Virus record (IMG/VR): IMGVR_UViG_2531839178_000008
Location: 1-27,773 of that record
Strand: one strand, 5' to 3'
DNA length: 27,773 nucleotides
DNA from: a virus
Lineage: Duplodnaviria; Heunggongvirae; Uroviricota; Caudoviricetes
Position 1 is the stretch's first letter, and every line of letters starts with the position of its first letter. The position numbers and the translations under genes were made by a program. Below are positions 8,726 through 26,289 of the stretch, in pieces. Under the pieces are notes generated by a model. The model was given only the letters and a program-made list of their open reading frames with translations, did no database searches and was not told the DNA's origin.

Positions 8726-9432
8726 TTACCAGCTATGCGATGACCAGAATACTCTGCCAATAATCCTTACGGTTTTATGAAATTCATCTCTATCCATTAC
8801 TTCATCCGGGTACTCTTCGCGATTTATTGATCTGATTATCACCGATGTAGGAGTGGCGATTAATGTTTTTACTCGCAACAAATCAGACTGGCAAATAGCG
8901 TAGGTTTTACCATCTCTGATGGTGGTATCTTGTGTGTTAACACCAACAACATCGCCATCGTGAAGAGTTGGTTCCATGCTTTGACCTGTTACCCTTACCA
9001 GCTTGGCAGAACTTTCAGTTACCCCCATCTTTTTCAGATAGTACTTTCTGAAAACCAAAGAGAACTCTGATGATTCTTCTATCTCGCAGCTACCGCTTCC
9101 AGCCGAAAGCGAAACGTTAAGAAGAGGCAATGCGACAAACTCGTCATCGTTTTTTTAATGTCTTCCCATACCACAGCTTTTAAAGATGACTCACGGATAT
9201 TGGATGGTTCTTCATGTGTACCATCCCTCATTTCACCAATACCAGAACTAAGCCATTCAGGGCGTACTTTTAAAGCATTAGCTAACTCAACCATCTTGCG
9301 AGATCCGTTTGTTTTACCGGATGACATCTTCTGTATGGCTGGCTGAGATATTCCAACCATGTCCGCAAGCTGTGATTGCGACACCCCTGCCGATCTCATG
9401 GCTGCATTTAGTCTTTCTGCGAATGTTTTCAT
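8726..9432 (-). pseudogene. cI: cI-like repressor (XRE-type HTH plus S24 LexA-like peptidase domain) interrupted by a frameshift
   Basis: N-terminal frame from ATG 9432 encodes the HTH domain (QSQLADMVGISQPAIQKMSSGK). A second frame (8726..9130) encodes ...LPLLNVSLSAGSGS... with Ala-Gly and GQSMEPTL (S24 Ser motif). The frames meet at an A7 run (coding strand; + strand T7 at 9150..9156); one extra A gives a continuous repressor. Confidence 0.8.
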
Positions 9433-9444
9433 ATCCACAAATCT

Positions 9445-9520
9445 ATAACTACGGTTATCCAAAGTAAAATAATAAAGGTTATTGCTATCTTTTATAACTT
9501 GGGTTATCCTTGGTTATAAG
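9445..9520. promoter_or_regulatory. OR operator region with divergent promoters
   Basis: Palindromic sites ATAACTACGGTTAT (9445..9458) and ATAACTTGGGTTAT (9494..9507), plus AATAAAGGTTATT (9471..9483) and a partial site at 9510..9520; putative pR -35 TTGCTA (9482..9487) and -10 TATCCT (9505..9510). Confidence 0.6.
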
Positions 9521-9543: not shown

Positions 9544-9768
9544 ATGAATTTAGTAATTCAACGAGCCTTGAAGATTGTCGGTAGTCAAAAGCGGCTTGCC
9601 GACAAGTGTGGTGTAACGCAGCCAGCAGTACACAAATGGCTGAAAGGCGGGCAGGTTTCTCCAGAGAAAGTTACCGCCATCGTTAACGCCACTGGAGGGC
9701 AGATCAAGGCTTACGAAATTCGCCCAGATTTACCACACCTGTTTCCAAAACCGAATCAGGCAGCATAA
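9544..9768 (+). CDS. cro: Cro-like DNA-binding protein (YdaS-type HTH)
   Basis: Divergent from the repressor; AGAGG 7 nt upstream of ATG 9544; HTH segment SQKRLADKCGVTQPAVHKWLKG. Confidence 0.7.
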   Translation: MNLVIQRALKIVGSQKRLADKCGVTQPAVHKWLKGGQVSPEKVTAIVNATGGQIKAYEIRPDLPHLFPKPNQAA

Positions 9769-9906: not shown

Positions 9907-10206
9907 ATGGAACAAACAAGTTACAGCAAACTATCACAGCGCGACGTTGATCGTGCAGAAACAGATTTACTCATCAACCTGTCAACGCTTACCCAGCGCG
10001 GTCTGGCAAAGATGATTGGCTGTCATGAATCGAAGATAAGCAGAACGGACTGGAGGTTTATTGCTTCGGTCTTGTGTGCTTTCGGAATGGCATCAGACAT
10101 CAGTCCGATTAGCAGGGCTTTTAAGTATGCGATTGATGGACTCACCAATAAAAAACGCCCGGTGTGCAAGACCGAGCGTTCTGAACAAATCCAGATGGAA
10201 TTTTAA
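9907..10206 (+). CDS. cII: cII-like transcriptional activator
   Basis: C-terminus ...GLTNKKRPVCKTERSEQIQMEF matches the lambda cII tail as recalled; position after cro and nutR. Confidence 0.8.
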   Translation: MEQTSYSKLSQRDVDRAETDLLINLSTLTQRGLAKMIGCHESKISRTDWRFIASVLCAFGMASDISPISRAFKYAIDGLTNKKRPVCKTERSEQIQMEF

Positions 10207-10228: not shown

Positions 10229-10372
10229 ATGCGAAAAACGCAGGAAAATAAACGCGTTAATCACCGAAAAGATGTGCTACGTGACCAGTTTTATCAGGGG
10301 GTTAATCCAGAAATAGCTGTGCCACTGAGAGAAATACTTAACAGGTACAAAACTTCGGAGAAGTCAAAATGA
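10229..10372 (+). CDS. small hypothetical protein (47 aa)
   Basis: ATG 10229 with GAGG upstream; stop overlaps the next start (ATGA). Confidence 0.4.
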   Translation: MRKTQENKRVNHRKDVLRDQFYQGVNPEIAVPLREILNRYKTSEKSK

Positions 10373-11121
10373 GCATGAATCTTATGGCTAAGGCCATGAA
10401 TATAAAGGTTGGCAACCCACTGAGAAAACTGATTCTGATTAAACTTGCCGATAACGCCAATGATAATGGCGAATGCTGGCCTTCATATCAACATGTCGCT
10501 GACCAGTGTGAGGTGAGCAGATCGACAGTAAAAAGTCACATTAGGGCACTGGAAGAGATGGGGCTTTTGAAAAGGGAATGCAGAAGAAAAGGAGAGCTTA
10601 ACCAGTCAAACGTTTTTTATCTGACGCTGGATAATGCACAACAAATCCCACCAGAATCAGGTGGGGCAGGAGCTGCCCGGGGTGGGGCAGGAGCTGCCCC
10701 CAGAACCTATCACTCTTTTGAACCAGTCAATGAACCTAAAAACATTATGTTCGAACATGTCCGAACGGAGTGTGAAAAAACTCCTGACCGTCACGAAGAA
10801 ACCGACAAGGCATTCGAGGAAATATTCTGGTGTGCAGGCATGCGGAAAGCCGGGAAGAAAAACGCAGCTTCGGCATTCAGAACACAGTTCAGGGAATGGC
10901 GTAAAACTACCAGGGGGACGGCAAGCGAGTTTGCCACGATGCTGGCAGACGATATTGCATGCAGGAATGGTAAGCAGTTCGGATTCGACAGGTTGTTACC
11001 GTCGAGCTACCTGAACGGTCAGCGCTGGAACGACGAGAAGCCAGAAACCATTCAACCACAATCCAGACCATCATCCGCAATTACCGTATCGAAAACTGGC
11101 TACGTGTTTTTCGACAGGTGA
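10369..11121 (+). CDS. replication initiation protein (O-like, winged-helix N-terminal domain)
   Basis: N-terminal HTH-like segment (NPLRKLILIKLADNANDNGECWPSYQHVADQCEVSRSTVKSHIRALEEMGLLKR) of the type found in phage replication initiators; internal iteron-like repeat; position after cII. Confidence 0.6.
   Translation: MSMNLMAKAMNIKVGNPLRKLILIKLADNANDNGECWPSYQHVADQCEVSRSTVKSHIRALEEMGLLKRECRRKGELNQSNVFYLTLDNAQQIPPESGGAGAARGGAGAAPRTYHSFEPVNEPKNIMFEHVRTECEKTPDRHEETDKAFEEIFWCAGMRKAGKKNAASAFRTQFREWRKTTRGTASEFATMLADDIACRNGKQFGFDRLLPSSYLNGQRWNDEKPETIQPQSRPSSAITVSKTGYVFFDR
10660..10701. repeat. two tandem 21-bp repeats with internal dyad symmetry (candidate origin iterons)
   Basis: GGTGGGGCAGGAGCTGCCC occurs at 10660..10678 and 10681..10699, each with inverted GGGCAG/CTGCCC arms, followed by an AT-richer stretch; encodes a GGAGAAR/GGAGAAP repeat. 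Confidence 0.6.
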
Positions 11122-11124
11122 ACC

Positions 11125-11232
11125 ATGAAATCAAAAATCAAATCGCTACTGGTCGCTGGTTATAACCACGGCTGGTTAAGTATTTCGTTTGTCGATTTCT
11201 GGTTTAAAAATCTCAATCTGAGGGAATCATGA
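11125..11232 (+). CDS. small hydrophobic ORF (35 aa) coupled to the primase-helicase start
   Basis: ATG 11125 four nt after the upstream stop; stop TGA overlaps the primase-helicase ATG; MKSKIKSLLVAGYNHGWLSISFVDFWFKNLNLRES. Confidence 0.3.
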   Translation: MKSKIKSLLVAGYNHGWLSISFVDFWFKNLNLRES

Positions 11233-14135
11233 GGCCAAGTGAACTTAGCGACCTGCTTTGGGCGCAGGTTGACAGGGTGGCTCCGCACCTGTTGCCAAAT
11301 GGCAAGAAAGAGGGGCATGAGTGGGTTGCCGGTAACGTCAACGGTGACAAGGGAAACAGCCTTAAGGTCAACCTTAGCGGCAAGAAAAAATGGGCTGATT
11401 TCGCTGAGGGAGACGGCGGTGACATGCTTGATTTGTGGATGGCATGTCGTGGAATTAACCTGCATCAGGCTATGCAGGAAGCGAAAGCATTTCTCGGTAT
11501 CAAGGATGACGATCACCATTTCGATGCCAAACGTGAGAAGAAATTCTCCAGACCTGATCGCAAGAAAATCGCCCACTACGTTACCAGAACAGAATCCCAT
11601 CTTGAGTACCTGCAATCGCGTGGCATATCGCCAGAAGTCGTAAAGCGCTACGAGGTTGTCAGCGGCAAGGTGTGGAATGGAGAACGAGAACTGGATGCTC
11701 TGGTGCTTCCGTACAAACGCGATGGTGAGTTGTTGCAGGTCAAGCGAATCAGCACTGAGCGCCCGGACGGGAAGAAAGTCATTATGGCAGAAGGTGATTG
11801 CGAACCTTGCCTGTTCGGATGGCAGGCTCTGGACGCTGGCGTGAGGGCGGTTGTGCTTTGCGAAGGCGAAATTGATTGTATGAGCTATGCGCAATACGGC
11901 ATCTCGGCGTTATCCGTGCCGTTTGGTGGCGGGAAAGGCGCTAAGCAACAGTGGATTGAGTTTGAGTATCACAACCTCGACAGGTTTGAGGAAATATTCA
12001 TCTCGATGGACGTTGATGATGTTGGTCGTGAAGCCGCAAGGGAAATCGCAAGCCGACTCGGTGAACATCGTTGCCGTCTTGTTACTCTGCCGTACAAAGA
12101 CATCAACGAATGCCTGATGAACGGTGTTACCGAGGATGAAATCTGGCAGTACATCGGCACGGCATCCTACTTTGATCCTGAAGAACTCTACAGCGCGCGA
12201 GAGTTTTACCAGGACACTATCAACGCTTTCTACAGCAAGCAGCAGTATCTGTTTAATCCACCGTGGGAATCTCTGGCAGATAAATTCCAGTTCCGTGAGG
12301 CCGAGTTGACGCTGGTCAATGGTGTGAACGGTCACGGAAAGGCATGCCCACTGAATGAGCCTATTCTTTTAGCTGATGGGACATGGACTACTCACGGGAA
12401 TGTAAAAATTGGCGATCAGGTGGCGTCAGTAGACGGCAATCCGTCAACTGTCACTGGGATATTCCCGCAGGGTGTTAGAGATGTTTACCGAGTCACATTT
12501 GAAGATGGTCGTTATGTTGATTGCGCAGGCGATCACCTATGGGAGGTCACTAGTCGTGGATTCACGAAAGGCGAGAAACGCCGCGTGATAGATACCTTCG
12601 GGTTGAAGCGGTTGAGTGAAACGAAGAGGCACAAAAATGGCGTTAGGATTCCTGAAATAACTGGTGACTTTGGCGACCACTCAGAGCCATTAGCATGGGT
12701 TATCGGCTCCCTTCTCGGGGATGGTAGTCTTAGCAATGGGAGCGTGAAGTTTTCAAACGTCGAGCCATACATGATCGAGCGTATGAAGGCTGAACTGCCT
12801 GATTACAACTTCTCTGGAGATGGTAAGGACTGGCTGATATCAACGGCGCGTGGTCAGGTAAATCCACTCATGGAGACCCTGCGAGGTTATGGACTAATGG
12901 GGTGCACAGCAAAAAACAAATTCATCCCTCGTGTGTTTTTTTCCGCAAATAAATCAACGCGTATAGGCATGCTGTGTGGTCTGCTTGAAACGGATGGGTA
13001 TGTCGAGAAGGATGGAACGCTTGTTTTTTCCTCAGCAAGTGAAGAACTGCGCAATGGGGTTGTTCAACTGGTTAACTCACTCGGCGGGTCATGCCGGACG
13101 CGAGTTAAAACTGGCGTGACATACACATACAAGGACGATAAGCGGCATGGGATGGATTCATACGAGGCAAGAATCAGACTGACAAGAGAAATCAGGGAGG
13201 CCATCCGTTCACCACGACTCAATGGCAGATTAACTGCGCATCGATTCGAGGGCTGTGGGGTATTCGTCAGGAATGTTGAAAAAATCGGCAATGCAGAATG
13301 CTTGTGTATTATGGTCGATCACCCTCGCCACCTGTATGTAACCAGGGGATATGTGGCGACGCATAACACCGAGGTTGTCGGGCATATGGCACTTGAGGCA
13401 ATGCGTCAGGGTGTGAAGACGTGCATCGCGTCACTTGAGCTGAAGCCTGGTATTCTCCTTAAGCGCCTTACCCGTCAGGCGACGTGCTGCAAGATTCCGC
13501 CAGTGCTGGAAATTGACTCTGCATTTAAATTTTATGACGAAAGACTTTGGGTGTTTGGCCTGACCGGAACGGCGAAAGCCGACAGGCTGATCGAAATATT
13601 CGACTACGCTCGCCGCCGATACGGGATCCAGTTATTCATCATCGACAGCCTGATGAAATGTGGCATAGGCGACGATGACTATAACGGGCAGAAGGCGTTT
13701 GTTGACTCGATTTGCGACTTCAAAAACAAAACAAACTCCCACGTCATTCTCGTTACTCACTCGCGAAAAGGAGACAGCGAAGAAAAACCAACCGGGAAAA
13801 TGGACGTAAAAGGCTCTGGAGCGATAACAGACCTGACAGACAACCTTTTCATCATCTGGCGTAACAAGGCTCGCGAGAGAGCGTTACAGAGAGTTCAGAG
13901 TGGTGAAAAGATGTCAGAGAAGGACGAACAGCTACTGGCATCTCCGGCATCTGTTTTAATGCTTGAAAAACAACGTAACGGCGAAGGTTGGGAAGGTGGT
14001 GTCCCGTTGTTCCTTGACGAGCAATCGCACCAGTTCCTGCAACTTGAATCAGGATCGCCATATAGCTACATCGCCAATATGCCGAAATCGGAATATGACG
14101 AGGCGTGGCGACAGGAAAACGTGACGGAGTATTAA
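11229..14135 (+). CDS. primase-helicase (Toprim primase plus gp4/DnaB-like SF4 helicase) containing an intein
   Basis: Toprim motif (VVLCEGEIDCMSYA), P-loop GVNGHGKA interrupted, Walker B-like IQLFIIDSLMK after the insert; 968-aa ORF with GAGGG ribosome-binding site. Confidence 0.85.
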   Translation: MRPSELSDLLWAQVDRVAPHLLPNGKKEGHEWVAGNVNGDKGNSLKVNLSGKKKWADFAEGDGGDMLDLWMACRGINLHQAMQEAKAFLGIKDDDHHFDAKREKKFSRPDRKKIAHYVTRTESHLEYLQSRGISPEVVKRYEVVSGKVWNGERELDALVLPYKRDGELLQVKRISTERPDGKKVIMAEGDCEPCLFGWQALDAGVRAVVLCEGEIDCMSYAQYGISALSVPFGGGKGAKQQWIEFEYHNLDRFEEIFISMDVDDVGREAAREIASRLGEHRCRLVTLPYKDINECLMNGVTEDEIWQYIGTASYFDPEELYSAREFYQDTINAFYSKQQYLFNPPWESLADKFQFREAELTLVNGVNGHGKACPLNEPILLADGTWTTHGNVKIGDQVASVDGNPSTVTGIFPQGVRDVYRVTFEDGRYVDCAGDHLWEVTSRGFTKGEKRRVIDTFGLKRLSETKRHKNGVRIPEITGDFGDHSEPLAWVIGSLLGDGSLSNGSVKFSNVEPYMIERMKAELPDYNFSGDGKDWLISTARGQVNPLMETLRGYGLMGCTAKNKFIPRVFFSANKSTRIGMLCGLLETDGYVEKDGTLVFSSASEELRNGVVQLVNSLGGSCRTRVKTGVTYTYKDDKRHGMDSYEARIRLTREIREAIRSPRLNGRLTAHRFEGCGVFVRNVEKIGNAECLCIMVDHPRHLYVTRGYVATHNTEVVGHMALEAMRQGVKTCIASLELKPGILLKRLTRQATCCKIPPVLEIDSAFKFYDERLWVFGLTGTAKADRLIEIFDYARRRYGIQLFIIDSLMKCGIGDDDYNGQKAFVDSICDFKNKTNSHVILVTHSRKGDSEEKPTGKMDVKGSGAITDLTDNLFIIWRNKARERALQRVQSGEKMSEKDEQLLASPASVLMLEKQRNGEGWEGGVPLFLDEQSHQFLQLESGSPYSYIANMPKSEYDEAWRQENVTEY
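12345..13367 (+). mobile_element. intein (341 aa) with a LAGLIDADG homing-endonuclease domain, inserted at the helicase P-loop
   Basis: Starts at Cys (CPLNEPILLADG...IGDQV...DG, block A), block B His (AGDHLWEV), two LAGLIDADG motifs (WVIGSLLGDGSL and IGMLCGLLETDGYV), blocks F/G (CLCIMVDHPRHLYV...GYVATHN) ending in His-Asn, followed by Thr as +1. Confidence 0.8.
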
Positions 14136-15109: not shown

Positions 15110-15418
15110 TTAAACGAAGCGGATCTGGAGTTTTTTTCCAGTAGCGCGGGCGAATTTTTTTAGGGTGGCAAATGATGGGCCGCTGATACCTGATGCGAGA
15201 TTACTTTCCATTCTGGTGATCGCGGTCGCTTTTGTTCCCATTCGCTCGGCAACTTCAGCCTGAGTTAAGCCAGCTTCTTTGCGTGCTGCCAGCATTTCAT
15301 CAAGCAGTGCGAATTCGTCAGCGATAGCGTCGTATTCTGCTTTAAAAGCCGGGTCTTCCATCCATTTGGCTGCCATTTCGTCGTGTGTCATGGTGGGGAG
15401 AGTGCGTTTACCAGTCAT
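15110..15418 (-). CDS. HigA-family antitoxin (XRE-type HTH)
   Basis: ATG 15418 with AAGGAGG 6 nt upstream; HTH segment AGLTQAEVAERMGTKATAITRMESNLASG; overlaps the toxin 3' end by 11 nt. Confidence 0.8.
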   Translation of the reverse strand: MTGKRTLPTMTHDEMAAKWMEDPAFKAEYDAIADEFALLDEMLAARKEAGLTQAEVAERMGTKATAITRMESNLASGISGPSFATLKKFARATGKKLQIRFV

Positions 15419-15737
15419 GCTTAACCTCCTTCATTCTGGTTTCAGCTTTCTTGCGTTCGGCTGGCGGTGTTTTCTGCGTTTTCTTTACAAAACTATGCAG
15501 CATGATGATGCGTTTCCCTGTCAGAGTGCAGTAAAAAACACGCGCGATCCCATCGTTGCCTTTAATTCTGAGTTCGAAAAGCCCGTCACCAAAGGCGCTG
15601 GTGTGAGGTTCTCCGAGATTGCTGCCATATATCTTCATACGTTCAACGAGATGTTGGTATCGGGCACGCATACTCAATGGAAGCCGATCGACTTCCAGCC
15701 TTACATCTTCACTGTAGTATTCGATAGTGTAGTTCAT
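15408..15737 (-). CDS. Gp49-like / HigB-family (RelE/ParE superfamily) toxin
   Basis: MNYTIEYYSEDVRLEVDRLP...GDGLFELRIKGNDGIARVFYCTL...IIMLHSFVKKTQKTPPAERKKAE matches the addiction-module killer pattern; toxin precedes antitoxin. Start could also be the ATG at 15749. Confidence 0.8.
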   Translation of the reverse strand: MNYTIEYYSEDVRLEVDRLPLSMRARYQHLVERMKIYGSNLGEPHTSAFGDGLFELRIKGNDGIARVFYCTLTGKRIIMLHSFVKKTQKTPPAERKKAETRMKEVKHDW

Positions 15738-15872
15738 AGGTATCAACATAACAAAATCGTTATATGCATTCAAGGCCTGTAGTTGACGACAACACATATC
15801 CGGGGCTATATTCCTCACGCGCCAGCAAAATCTGGCGTCGGGATTGGAACCCCGGATATCGAAACGGTGCAT

Positions 15873-18197: not shown

Positions 18198-18382
18198 ACG
18201 CCACAATTCAAACGATACCAGAGCTTCTTATCCAGACACGAGGCAATCAGACCGAAGTGGCGAGGATGCTTTCCTGCGCAAGAGGAACAGTGCTCAAGTA
18301 CAACCGAGACAGCAAAGGCGAGCGTCACGTAATAGTTAACGGCGTCCTGATGGTCAAACAGGGCAAGAGGGGAAGACGATGA
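18194..18382 (+). CDS. ninH: NinH
   Basis: ..TIPELLIQTRGNQTEVARMLSCARGTVLKY..VIVNGVLMV.. matches lambda NinH as recalled; position immediately before Q. Confidence 0.75.
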   Translation: MNATIQTIPELLIQTRGNQTEVARMLSCARGTVLKYNRDSKGERHVIVNGVLMVKQGKRGRR

Positions 18383-19002
18383 GACTCGAAAGCGTAGCTA
18401 AATTTCATTCGCCAAAAAGCCCGATGATGAGCGACTCACCACGGGCTACGGCTTCTGACTCTCTTTCCGGTACTGATGTGATGGCTGCTATGGGGATGGC
18501 GCAATCACAAGCCGGATTCGGAATGGCTGCATTTTGCGGTAAGCATGAACTCAGCCAGAACGACAAACAAAAGGCTATCAACTATCTGATGCAATTTGCA
18601 CACAAGGTATCGGGGAAATACCGTGGTGTGGCAAAGCTCGAAGGAAATACTAAGGCAAAGGTACTGCAAGTGCTCGCAACATTCGCTTATGCGGATTATT
18701 GCCGTAGTGCCGCGACGCCGGGCGCAAGATGCAGAGATTGCCACGGAACAGGTCTGGCAGTTGATATAGCCAAAACAGAGCAGTGGGGGAGAGTTGTCGA
18801 GAAAGAGTGCGGAAGATGCAAAGGTGTCGGCTATTCAAGGATGCCAGCAAGTGCAGCATATCGCGCTGTAACGATGCTAATCCCAAACCTCACCCAACCC
18901 ACATGGTCACGCACTGTTAAGCCGCTGTATGACGCTCTGGTGGTGCAATGCCACAAAGAAGAGTCAATCGCAGACAACATTTTGAATGCGGTCACACGTT
19001 AG
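18379..19002 (+). CDS. Q: late-gene antiterminator Q (lambda type)
   Basis: 207-aa product beginning MRLESVAKFHSPKSPMMSDSPRATASD with a CRDCHGTG...CGRCKG zinc motif, essentially the lambda Q sequence as recalled. Confidence 0.9.
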   Translation: MRLESVAKFHSPKSPMMSDSPRATASDSLSGTDVMAAMGMAQSQAGFGMAAFCGKHELSQNDKQKAINYLMQFAHKVSGKYRGVAKLEGNTKAKVLQVLATFAYADYCRSAATPGARCRDCHGTGLAVDIAKTEQWGRVVEKECGRCKGVGYSRMPASAAYRAVTMLIPNLTQPTWSRTVKPLYDALVVQCHKEESIADNILNAVTR

Positions 19003-19262: not shown

Positions 19263-19337
19263 GGGTCAGTCGTATAAAGGTCATTACGGAAGGCTGTTAA
19301 CCTTCTTATCGTGGTTCGAGTCCACGCTGTCCCGCCA
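19263..19337 (+). tRNA. tRNA-like gene, anticodon GUU (Asn-like), atypical
   Basis: Canonical T arm CGTGG-TTCGAGT-CCACG, anticodon arm GAAGG-CTGTTAA-CCTTC, encoded CCA; but acceptor stem has a U-U mismatch and the D arm is only 3 bp. Confidence 0.4.
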
Positions 19338-19342
19338 AACAT

Positions 19343-19418
19343 GCTGGTTTAGCTCCAATGGTAGAGCAGTCGCCTTGTAAGCGAATGGGTAGCGGTTCAA
19401 GTCCGTTAACCAGCACCA
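19343..19418 (+). tRNA. tRNA, anticodon UGU (Thr)
   Basis: Manual fold: acceptor GCTGGTT/AACCAGC, D arm GCTC-CAATGGTA-GAGC, anticodon loop CTTGTAA, variable TGGGT, T arm AGCGG-TTCAAGT-CCGTT, discriminator A, encoded CCA; 76 nt. Confidence 0.65.
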
Positions 19419-22399: not shown

Positions 22400-24019
22400 A
22401 TGCCGTTACCATTCCCCTTCGATTTTAAACATCCTGATTACCAGATGGTTTTTGAATGGCGGATGGAACGCCTACAGCGCATTCGCCAGAATCCTGAAAT
22501 ATTGCCTGCACTAAAACAGTTTTACCGTACCAATCCGGCTCAGTTCATCATCGACTGGGGCATGACAACGGACCCGCGTAATATTGATTATGGCCTGCCG
22601 GTGACCATTCCGTTTTTACTCTTCCCTAAGCAGGAGGAGTGGATCCACTGGATTATGGAACGCTGGAGCAATCGGGAGAATGGTATTACCGAAAAATCCC
22701 GTGAAATGGGGCTCAGTTGGACCGCGATCGGACTGGCCTGCTCGCTTTGTCTCTTCAACAAAGAAATGGTTATCGGTTTCGGCTCCCGTAAAGAGGAATA
22801 CGTCGACAGCACCGGTGACCCGAAAGCATTGTTCTGGAAGGCGCGCAAGTTCGTGGAAACACTACCTGTAGAGTTTCGCGGTTCGTGGAGCGAGAAGAAG
22901 CACGCGCCATATATGCGTGTTGAGTTTCCTGAAACTGGTGCCGTTATCAAAGGCGAGGCTGGCGATAATATCGGTCGTGGTGACCGTACGACCCTTTATT
23001 TTGTGGATGAGGCTGCTTTTCTCCAGCGACCATTACTTATTGATGCCGCGCTTTCTCAGACAACCCGATGTCGTATCGATCTCTCATCGGTTAACGGCAT
23101 GAACAACCCCTTCGCACAGAAGCGGCACAGTGGAAAAATCCCGGTGTTTACGTTTCACTGGCGTAGCGATCCGCGTAAAGACGATGAGTGGTATCACAAG
23201 GAGTGCGAGAAAATTGATAACCCAGTCATCGTTGCCCAGGAACTGGATCTTAATTACCAGGCATCAGCAGAAGGCATCCTGATCCCCTCAGAATGGGTAC
23301 AGGCTGCGGTTGATGCACATATCAGACTGGGCATTCAGCCCGGCGGCCAACGGCTTGGTGCAATGGATGTCGCCGACGAAGGGCGGGATAAAAACGCCTG
23401 TTCGCTCCGTTATGGCATCCTGCTGAATGACGTACAGGAGTGGTCAGGTAAGGGGAGTGACATCTATGACTCTGTGGTTAAGGTTTTTGGTCTGTGCGAT
23501 GACTTTGGTGCCGATGAGTTTCGCTTTGATGAGGACGGATTGGGTGCTGGCGTTCGTGGTGATGCGCGCGCTATCAACGAACTGCGTGAAGCGGAGGGCA
23601 TCTGTCAAATCACCGCCACTCCATTCCGGGGCAGCGGGAGCGTGTTTCATCCTGAAAATGAAGCTGTTCCCGGTGATAATGGTAAACCGGCTCGTCTGAA
23701 TAAGGACTTTTTTGTCAATGCCAAAGCCCAGGGGTGGTGGCATCTTCGCAAATTATTCCGCAATACATTTCGTGCACTACAGGGTATGGAGTATGACCCG
23801 GATGAGATTATTTCCATCAGCAGCACAATGGAAAATAAAGACCGGCTGTTGATGGAGCTGTCACAACCTACCTGGTCAAAAAATGCCACCGGAAAAATTC
23901 TTGTGGATAAGCAACCTGACGGAACGAAATCTCCAAACCTGGCTGATTCTGTGATGATTGCTTATGCCCCGATGGAAATGCCCATCGTAATTTCTGATGA
24001 CTTTATGGAGTGGATCTGA
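22400..24019 (+). CDS. terminase large subunit
   Basis: 539-aa protein with an ATPase N-terminal region (Walker B-like [10 protein letters not shown]) and a nuclease-like C-terminal region, between the small subunit and portal. Confidence 0.85.
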
Positions 24020-25559
24020 TGTGGCCGTTTAAACGAAAAGAACCGTCAGCGCCGGCGGTACCGGACAAACAACCTGAACCACAGCCACCGGAAATTAACG
24101 ATGAGGTGATCGCTTCCGTCCGGCAGAAACCACGGAGGGAGTTTGTTCGCTATGAGCCACCACCGGGCGTTATCCCGGCACCGGTTCGCGACGCTGTGCT
24201 GGCAATGGATGCAACACCGTATGACACCCTGAACAGTCATTATCCTGATTTTGTTTATGGTGGTTTCCCGGGCTATCCGTATCTGGCACTTCAGGCGCAG
24301 TTACCGGAGTACCGGCGTATGGTCAGTGTGCTTGCCGAGGAGATGACCCGTAAGTGGATAAAGGTTAAGGCGGTCGGAGAAGGGGACGACAGCCACGCGT
24401 CACGCATAGCGCAGCTTACTGACGCACTGGAGCACTATAACGTACAGGACGTTTTCAGACTGGCGATTGAGCACGACGGCTTTTTCGGGCGAGGGCAGAT
24501 TTATATTGATGTGCGTTCGCCATCGGGTATATCTGCCTGGACTGACCCGGCGGAGCTGGGATCCGGACTGTTTATTTCCGACAAAAAATCCCGAAAGGTT
24601 CCCTGCTGGGGCTTCGTGTTATTGAACCCGTCTGGACGTATCCGGGTATATATAACGCGGATAATCCGCTGAGTGATGATTTTTACCGTCCGTCCGAATG
24701 GTACGTAATGGGAAAAACGGTTCACGCCAGCCGCATGATTGATCTGATCTCCCGTCCGGTTCCGGACATGCTGAAGCCGGCCTACAACTTTGGCGGCCTG
24801 TCACTGGTTCAGATTGCTGAGCCTTATGTTGATAACTGGCTGCGAACACGCGACAGCGTGGGCGATATGCTGCATTCGTTTTCGCTGAGCGGGATTAAGA
24901 CGGATATGACACAGGTATTAAGTGGTAAAAGGGACCCGAATTACGCAAAACGCGCGGAGTTGTTTAACCGTACCCGTGATAACCGCGGGCTGCTGATGCT
25001 GGACAAGACGAACGAAGAGTTTTTCCAGTTCAACACTCCCCTGAGCGGCCTCGACACCCTTCAGGCGCAGGCACAGGAACACATGTTCTTTGTCAGTGCC
25101 ATACCGTCCGTAAAATTCGCCGGGCTGAGCCCAACGGGACTGAATGCGTCGAGTGAGGGTGAAATCCGGGTGTTTTACGACACCATTGCTGCACTTGCCA
25201 CCCGTCTTCTGAAGAAACCGCTGAAAAAGGTGCTGGATATTATCCAGTTGTCTGAGTTCGGCGATATCGATCCTGATATCACGTTTGAATTTGAACCCCT
25301 GCATGAGCTGACGCGCGAGCAACTGGCGAATATCCGTAAAACTGAGGCGGAAACGGATCAGATTTATGAGAGCACCGGAGCAGTGACCAATAACGAAGTA
25401 CGCGAACGGCTGGCGACTGCGCAGGACAGCCCGTACAGCGGTATTGACCTGAGCGGGGACATCGAGATTGACGACACTGAAATTGACAACACCGAAGAAA
25501 ATCCGCCGCAAGGCCCGAATGCAGACCCTGAGGCGGATTTCACCCAACGCGGGGATTGA
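24019..25559 (+). pseudogene. portal protein interrupted by a single-base frameshift in an A6 run
   Basis: The N-terminal frame (to 24672) and C-terminal frame (open from 24546, listed from 24708) overlap; one extra A in the run at 24583..24588 joins them (...[28 protein letters not shown]...), giving a portal-sized protein of about 510 aa. Confidence 0.75.
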
Positions 25560-26289
25560 GGCCTGGTACCGCAGACAACTGGATAATGCCGTCAGTGGGA
25601 TGCACAACAGTGTACTTTACTGGCTGCGGGCTGAGTACCGTAAAACAGACCTCGCGCAGGATGCGTCCCCCGTTAACCTGATGCGTGGTGCCATGCAGCA
25701 ACTTGCCCGGCGCTGGCAGAAAAATTTTGACGAAATGGCCCTGCGGCTGGCGAGGCGGTTTGCCGGTGATGTCCTGAAAAACAGCGATGCGTCACTGTAC
25801 ACTGCGCTCCGTGATGCCGGGTTTACGGTTCCTTTCCGTATGACAACGGAGATGAATACCGCACTTCAGGCCAGCATCACGGAGAATGTGAACCTCATTC
25901 GCTCCATCCCGCAGCAACATCTCACCCAGGTGGAAACACTGGTCATGCAGTCTGTTGGCCGGGGACGTGACCTGAAAACGCTGACCGATGAACTGGAAAA
26001 ACGTTACGGCATCACACGACGGCGCGCGGCGCTGATTGCCCGCGACCAGAACAATAAGGCAACGTCGGTAATGCAGGCCGCCAGACAGCGTTCGGTGGGT
26101 ATCACTGAAGGTGTCTGGAGGCATTCCCGCGCGGGTAAAACATGGCGTCCGTCGCATGTGAAGGCGAACGGTAAACGGTTTGACCTGCGAAAGGGGATGT
26201 TTCTGGATGGTAAGTGGGTACTGCCGGGCGAAGAAATCAACTGCCGGTGTGGCTGGGAGGCCGTTATTCCCGGACTGGAGAAAAAATGA
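25519..26289 (+). CDS. head morphogenesis protein (Mu gpF / SPP1 gp7-like minor head protein)
   Basis: Position after portal and conserved C-terminal region (..[50 protein letters not shown]..); start uncertain (ATG 25519 or the listed TTG 25468). Confidence 0.7.

Follow-up and report, generated by a model that had tools for sequence, protein, structure and literature searches.

Relation to known lambdoid repressors

The cI repressors of phages Lambda and 434, members of the LexA/S24 superfamily, are built on a common plan: a helix-turn-helix (HTH) domain at the N-terminus, a linker with an Ala-Gly site, and a C-terminal S24 domain with a GxSMxP motif and a lysine downstream of it. Their surroundings are just as characteristic, with a divergent cro gene, three O_R operators, and O_L operators upstream of N. 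All these elements are found in the stretch of DNA analysed here, hereafter called the window, whose 27,773 nucleotides are the whole of contig AKNA01000005.1 from the Shigella boydii 965-58 draft assembly GCA_000268145.1. Two things set it apart from Lambda and 434: the operator half-sites, ATAAC/GTTAT, are specific to the immunity type of the window, and the two domains of its repressor are written in separate frames. Given one more adenine in a run of seven (A8 instead of A7), the latter disappears, and there is no difference in kind between this cI and those of Lambda and 434.

Stx-converting phages of the genus Traversvirus offer a second point of comparison. Their cI is 96.6% identical to that of the window at the amino acid level in the Stx1_JNE110649 locus and about 93% identical at the nucleotide level in SH2026Stx1, and the gene neighbourhood DUF3024, cI, cro, cII is the same in SH2026Stx1, Stx1_JNE110649, PA28, and the window. 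The Traversvirus alleles differ from the window in carrying either AAAAGAAAC (Lys-Arg-Asn) or, in PA28, no run at all, and are thus without a long homopolymer at this site.

A third likeness is technical rather than biological. In 454 assemblies, homopolymer errors in the consensus are biased toward A/T, rise with the length of the run, and create artificial frameshifts (PMC3277595). The window has in common with the products of homopolymer-error-prone (flow-based) sequencing the same one-base shortfalls in the longest A/T runs, calls that depend on the sequencing run, and artificial frameshifts; for the data used here, we infer a pyrosequencing-like platform from the accession numbers and the error pattern.

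An apparent split of the repressor gene at a run of seven adenines

The repressor gene lies on the minus strand and, as written in the window, occupies two reading frames. The HTH frame (9079–9432) runs from an ATG at 9432 to a stop at 9079–9081, i.e., 117 codons plus the stop, and the preliminary description rightly gave this 117-aa N-terminal fragment as the only product of the gene as written. Its residues 1–94 (MKTFAERLN...WEDIKK) are native, match the N-terminus of intact relatives, and comprise a 434-repressor-like HTH_3 domain (Pfam, E 7e-8, residues 10–61) and the start of the linker; residues 95–117 are 23 out-of-frame residues, TMTSLSHCLFLTFRFRLEAVAAR. The S24 frame (8726–9154) is open from 9154 to a stop at 8726–8728 and contains the linker with its Ala-Gly site (NDDEFVALPLLNVSLSAGSGS), followed by the serine and lysine motifs GQSMEPTL and RVKTL. 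In the ORF listing, it starts at a TTG at 9130 and is 134 aa long, LSAGSGS and GQSMEPTL included, and the Pfam Peptidase_S24 profile matches this piece from end to end (E 7.5e-19).

The two frames are different and meet at 9150–9156, a T7 run on the plus strand (A7 on the coding strand). The preliminary description had placed the separation of the HTH and S24 domains at an A7 run within 9130–9160 and had read in the S24 frame an Ala-Gly site, in SLSAGSGS, and a GxSMxP-type motif, GQSMEPTL; we located all of them there. The split at A7 is read directly from the sequence and does not depend on statistics. As for its origin, we consider it very probable, on the evidence detailed below, that it is a sequencing or assembly artefact, with A8 under-called as A7, and that the gene is intact. 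The 965-58 draft assembly would have dropped one base of the A8 (T8) homopolymer, and, in the organism, cI would most likely be a single ORF of 708 nt encoding the 235-aa protein WP_000846391.1.

The restored 235-aa repressor

Inserting one A in the run (A8) indeed produces a single 708-nt ORF, the 235-aa translation of which is identical to WP_000846391.1, a protein annotated “XRE family transcriptional regulator” at the same position in E. coli FDAARGOS_944 and E. coli O39:NM F8704-2. In this restored protein, the frame junction falls at Lys94/Asn95, and the Ala111-Gly112 pair (LSA111-G112SGS) sits in the linker between the HTH and S24 domains. The motifs GQSMEPT and RVKTL point to Ser152 and Lys189, respectively, which, by analogy with LexA and Lambda cI, would form the Ser-Lys dyad. 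The Peptidase_S24 profile is covered over positions 1–116 of 116 (Pfam, E 3.5e-18), the best PDB sequence matches of the N-terminal part are the DNA-binding domains of the phage 434 repressor (E about 1e-7), and the PHROGs assignment is PHROG 4, “transcriptional repressor”/CI-like repressor (E 3e-53).

An HTH domain, an S24 domain, an Ala-Gly site in the linker, and the context of an immunity region, features expected of an autocleaving repressor of the cI/LexA type, are all found. The underlying gene is an ordinary cI-type repressor of a lambdoid prophage, already known and widespread. Its locus is carried by 163 complete E. coli genomes; the exact 235-aa protein is present on 280 contigs and the split fragments on at most 4 read-run contigs. 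From what is known of Lambda and 434, the protein would be expected to bind ATAAC-N4-GTTAT operators at O_R and O_L, and its membership in the family suggests, by analogy, that it would be inactivated via RecA-stimulated self-cleavage.

Immunity region

On the other side of the operators, the cro-like gene (9544–9768, plus strand) diverges from cI; it encodes 74 aa, is intact, and is identical in hundreds of assemblies. Beyond it lies cII (9907–10206), and an N-like antiterminator gene is found at 6437–6820. Between the repressor gene and cro, O_R (9445–9507) has three ATAAC-N4-GTTAT sites (9445–9458, 9469–9482, and 9494–9507) with a spacing of 24–25 bp. Upstream of the N-like gene, O_L (7072–7110) has sites of the same type at 7072–7085 and 7097–7110, the only two detected there. 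The motif thus has five matches in the window for 0.62 expected, and a count of five was reached in 0 of 100 shuffles.

The N gene, the replication genes (10369–11121 and 11229–14135), the Q gene (18379–19002), and the lysis cassette all have the same lengths as in relatives. With full-length lytic genes, a prophage truly lacking cI function should be lethal to its host, if Lambda biology is a guide, which argues against a real null in strain 965-58.

Run length in relatives and across sequencing runs

In order to compare run lengths, we used three kinds of assemblies: the GenBank contig, NCBI assemblies, and Logan assemblies of read runs. The NCBI set (n = 12) was made up of the two closest complete genomes and of ten chromosome-scale or large-contig assemblies encoding the window's own cro protein. 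The two closest genomes are 99.8–99.9% identical to the window over the gene, and both have T8 (A8) and an intact ORF; the ten others have T8 at the cI run and also at another T7 run of the window, at 7830 (10/10 at both). The comparison with homologous repressors proposed in the preliminary description, i.e., a search for A8 at this position, therefore gives A8 in 12 of the 12 NCBI assemblies retrieved with this immunity region. A continuous frame spanning both repressor domains is absent in the window, with A7, and present in all 12 of these assemblies, with A8; we attribute its failure in the window to a miscall. More distant cI alleles have either AAAAGAAAC, which is the commoner allele, or no run, and all are in frame. 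Seven other runs that we checked are invariant among the NCBI assemblies, and a phase-variable homopolymer locus finds no support in this set, the length at the cI run being 8 in 12/12.

Lengths deviating from 8 were seen in read-run assemblies only: in three accession-early runs, one or both of the 8-base tracts are called as 7, and one recent run has 9. Matched genotypes are particularly informative here. Over 3,665 bp, SRR094061 has no mismatch with UGBG01000002.1, an NCBI contig of 4.4 Mb, and two gaps, which are precisely the two 8-base runs (7 vs. 8). ERR15561420, which has the genotype of SRR094061, differs from the same contig by one mismatch and four gaps, each of them an additional base in a homopolymer (T9, T9, G7, and A7). 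As for SRR040460, its sequence over 3,039 bp is that of CP065611.1 (5.19 Mb) and JARKNK010000001.1 (a 3.16-Mb contig) save for the 7830 run, again 7 vs. 8. Calls of 7, 8, and 9 are thus obtained on otherwise identical sequences, so that run length tracks the sequencing run and not the genotype; indeed, 7 and 9 appear only in read-run assemblies that miscall further runs. A literature search on the sequencing platform of 965-58, SRR059778, SRR094061, and SRR040460 returned nothing usable.

Aligned over 5.2 kb with its nearest genotype (L037), the window itself shows four substitutions, an additional in-frame repeat unit of 21 bp, and the two T8-to-T7 gaps. The Logan assembly of SRR059778, which has the window's genotype, has A7 at the cI run, like the GenBank contig, and the repressor fragments are found in the Logan assemblies of SRR059778, SRR094061, and ERR15561420.

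One has to consider that the A8 of strain 965-58 may truly have slipped to A7, making cI a genuine pseudogene. Its product would then be no more than the N-terminal domain, 94 residues long, extended by 23 out-of-frame residues and deprived of the domain for dimerisation, cooperativity, and cleavage, and the prophage would be either a decaying cryptic element or under the control of another copy of the repressor. Two assemblies of the 965-58 data do agree on A7, although a systematic under-call would be reproduced in the same way; homopolymers are natural hot spots of slippage and mutation; and Shigella prophages do decay, some decay of this lineage being made plausible by two features of the contig described below, a probably real 11-bp duplication in a head gene and a portal allele shared with SRR7163918. 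Against this stand the 8 bases of all 12 NCBI assemblies and the matched genotypes, in which other accession-early runs fall from 8 to 7 at the same two places in sequences otherwise equal to those of 8-base assemblies. Moreover, a second and different prophage genotype, SRR094061, has the same double shortfall; a real deletion would then call for four independent identical mutations, or for an old null allele kept through 0.3% divergence. Together with the expected lethality of a null repressor in the presence of intact lytic genes, this makes a genuine deletion improbable in our view.

Were A7 real nonetheless, the prophage would be cryptic, non-inducible, and weakly immune, or a subpopulation would induce spontaneously; some full-length repressor would still be made through slippage at a low level on the A run; and the locus would illustrate prophage domestication in a modest way. 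We hold it to be very unlikely that A7 is real and that the A8 tract of cI is a slippage-prone weak point from which a bare DNA-binding fragment occasionally arises. Between the two readings left side by side in the preliminary description, the 12/12 A8 count and the run-dependent calls thus favour the homopolymer miscall with an intact repressor, and they go against the genuine split with a weakened, non-inducible repressor.

Possible programmed recoding at the run

The A7 run could also be read as a site of −1 ribosomal frameshifting or of transcriptional slippage, through which one gene would give both a short DNA-binding fragment and some full-length cleavable repressor. A −1 shift at the run, or one extra A in the mRNA, would yield exactly the full-length protein, and slippage at Lys codons within A runs is a known phenomenon. 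The zero frame at this position, AUU AAA AAA ACG, is however not an X XXY YYZ heptamer and would permit at most P-site slippage of a single tRNA. The 90 nt downstream show no sign of a stimulatory structure either, their folding energy of −25 kcal/mol being close to the shuffle mean of −23.8 (z = −0.35). Finally, the shifted arrangement is found in no homologue: the closest have an in-frame A8, the commoner allele has AAAAGAAAC, PA28 has no run, and a single joined match spans at least 80% of the protein in 372 of 444 phage records. As heptamer, downstream structure, and conservation are all absent, we rejected programmed frameshifting, the probability of which we regard as negligible.

Other homopolymer shortfalls and lesions in the contig

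The under-called A8 that we favour at the cI locus has companions in the contig. Relative to near-identical relatives, the window has three 1-bp gaps, all of them in the longest A/T runs (7830–7836, 9150–9156, and 24583–24588), and each breaks a gene; homopolymer runs of 8 or more number zero in the window. The run at 7193 is likewise called differently by two assemblies of the same strain, as G6 in the contig and as G5 in the Logan assembly of the reads, which again speaks for miscalls.

The run at 7830–7836 (T7, vs. T8 in relatives) lies in a minus-strand gene at 7625–8157 and breaks a 177-aa hypothetical protein of the WP_001193679.1 type into pieces of 121 and 63 aa. The 121-aa fragment occurs on only about 12 contigs, of various immunity types, and T7 is probably a miscall of the same kind as at the cI run. 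The presence of the 63-aa fragment on 613 contigs suggested a common and real T7 allele, an idea that we rejected, since the genomes concerned have T8, with an annotation that uses the shorter start only.

The run at 24583–24588 (plus strand; A6, vs. A7 in relatives) lies in the portal gene (24019–25559), whose 513-aa product (Phage_portal_3/DUF1073) is broken into 217 and 283 aa; by exact sequence match, these fragments are EIQ36516.1 and EIQ36517.1 of S. boydii 965-58. The A6 allele is also present in SRR061722, which has a further shortfall (A6 to A5), and in the later run SRR7163918. It is probably a miscall as well, with less certainty than at the cI site. One Logan contig of the same reads, SRR059778_98 (L021), has A7 and an intact portal gene, with nine substitutions relative to the window at 22939–25924. 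We did not count it as proof of error in the contig, as nine nearby substitutions may indicate a paralogous head module or a popped bubble.

The nine substitutions of L021 all fall within the terminase/portal region, and downstream of it the sequence is identical to the window, a pattern that points either to a paralogous second head module in the genome or to a mixed de Bruijn path.

Further downstream, in the gene at 26286–27527, an 11-bp tandem duplication, TGGCGATGTGG (27407–27417), adds a third unit to a near-repeat; through the resulting frameshift, the Pa193_gp24/DUF2213 head protein ends after 413 aa instead of 449. The GenBank contig and the Logan assembly of SRR059778 agree on this duplication, which none of the relatives has. 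It is not a homopolymer error and likely arose as a true mutation in the prophage of strain 965-58, so that one genuine lesion or more is probably present.

Further frameshifts were sought in the region 2543–5601, where the single difference found is an in-frame one of 3 nt.

Consequences for databases

The two halves of the repressor exist in NCBI as separate S. boydii proteins: WP_094192317.1 (117 aa; 9079–9432), named “helix-turn-helix transcriptional regulator”, and WP_284521253.1 (134 aa; 8726–9130), named “S24 family peptidase”. Both are probably artefacts of the miscalled run, and such half-repressor records can mislead surveys of domain architectures or of defence systems and prophages. 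The miscall origin is probably shared by these two RefSeq fragment records and the other “pseudogenes” of the contig. The contig should bear a data-quality flag, its longest A/T runs being called too short: the interrupted genes for the repressor, the 177-aa protein, and probably the portal are not to be taken as pseudogenes, as signs of prophage decay, or as the mark of a non-inducible prophage. The biological weight of the case is small, a cI-type repressor being standard and widespread.

Additional features of the prophage

The replication/HTH_36 gene (10369–11121) contains at 10660–10680 an in-frame 21-bp repeat unit, GGTGGGGCAGGAGCTGCCCGG, with one copy more than in L037. Its protein is 250 aa long in the window and 243, 258, or 265 aa long in relatives, indicating a Gly/Ala-rich repeat of variable length; FDAARGOS_944 has an ISEc20 insertion at the position corresponding to 10678–10684.

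In the nin region, on the minus strand at 15110–15872, sits a toxin–antitoxin module: a pair of small overlapping ORFs about 95% identical to the HTH antitoxin and the RelE/ParE-family toxin of a relative (L008). Finally, two tRNA genes, tRNA-Asn (GTT) and tRNA-Thr (TGT), are found at 19263–19418, between the Q-like antiterminator gene and the lysis cassette, and occupy the same place in related prophages.
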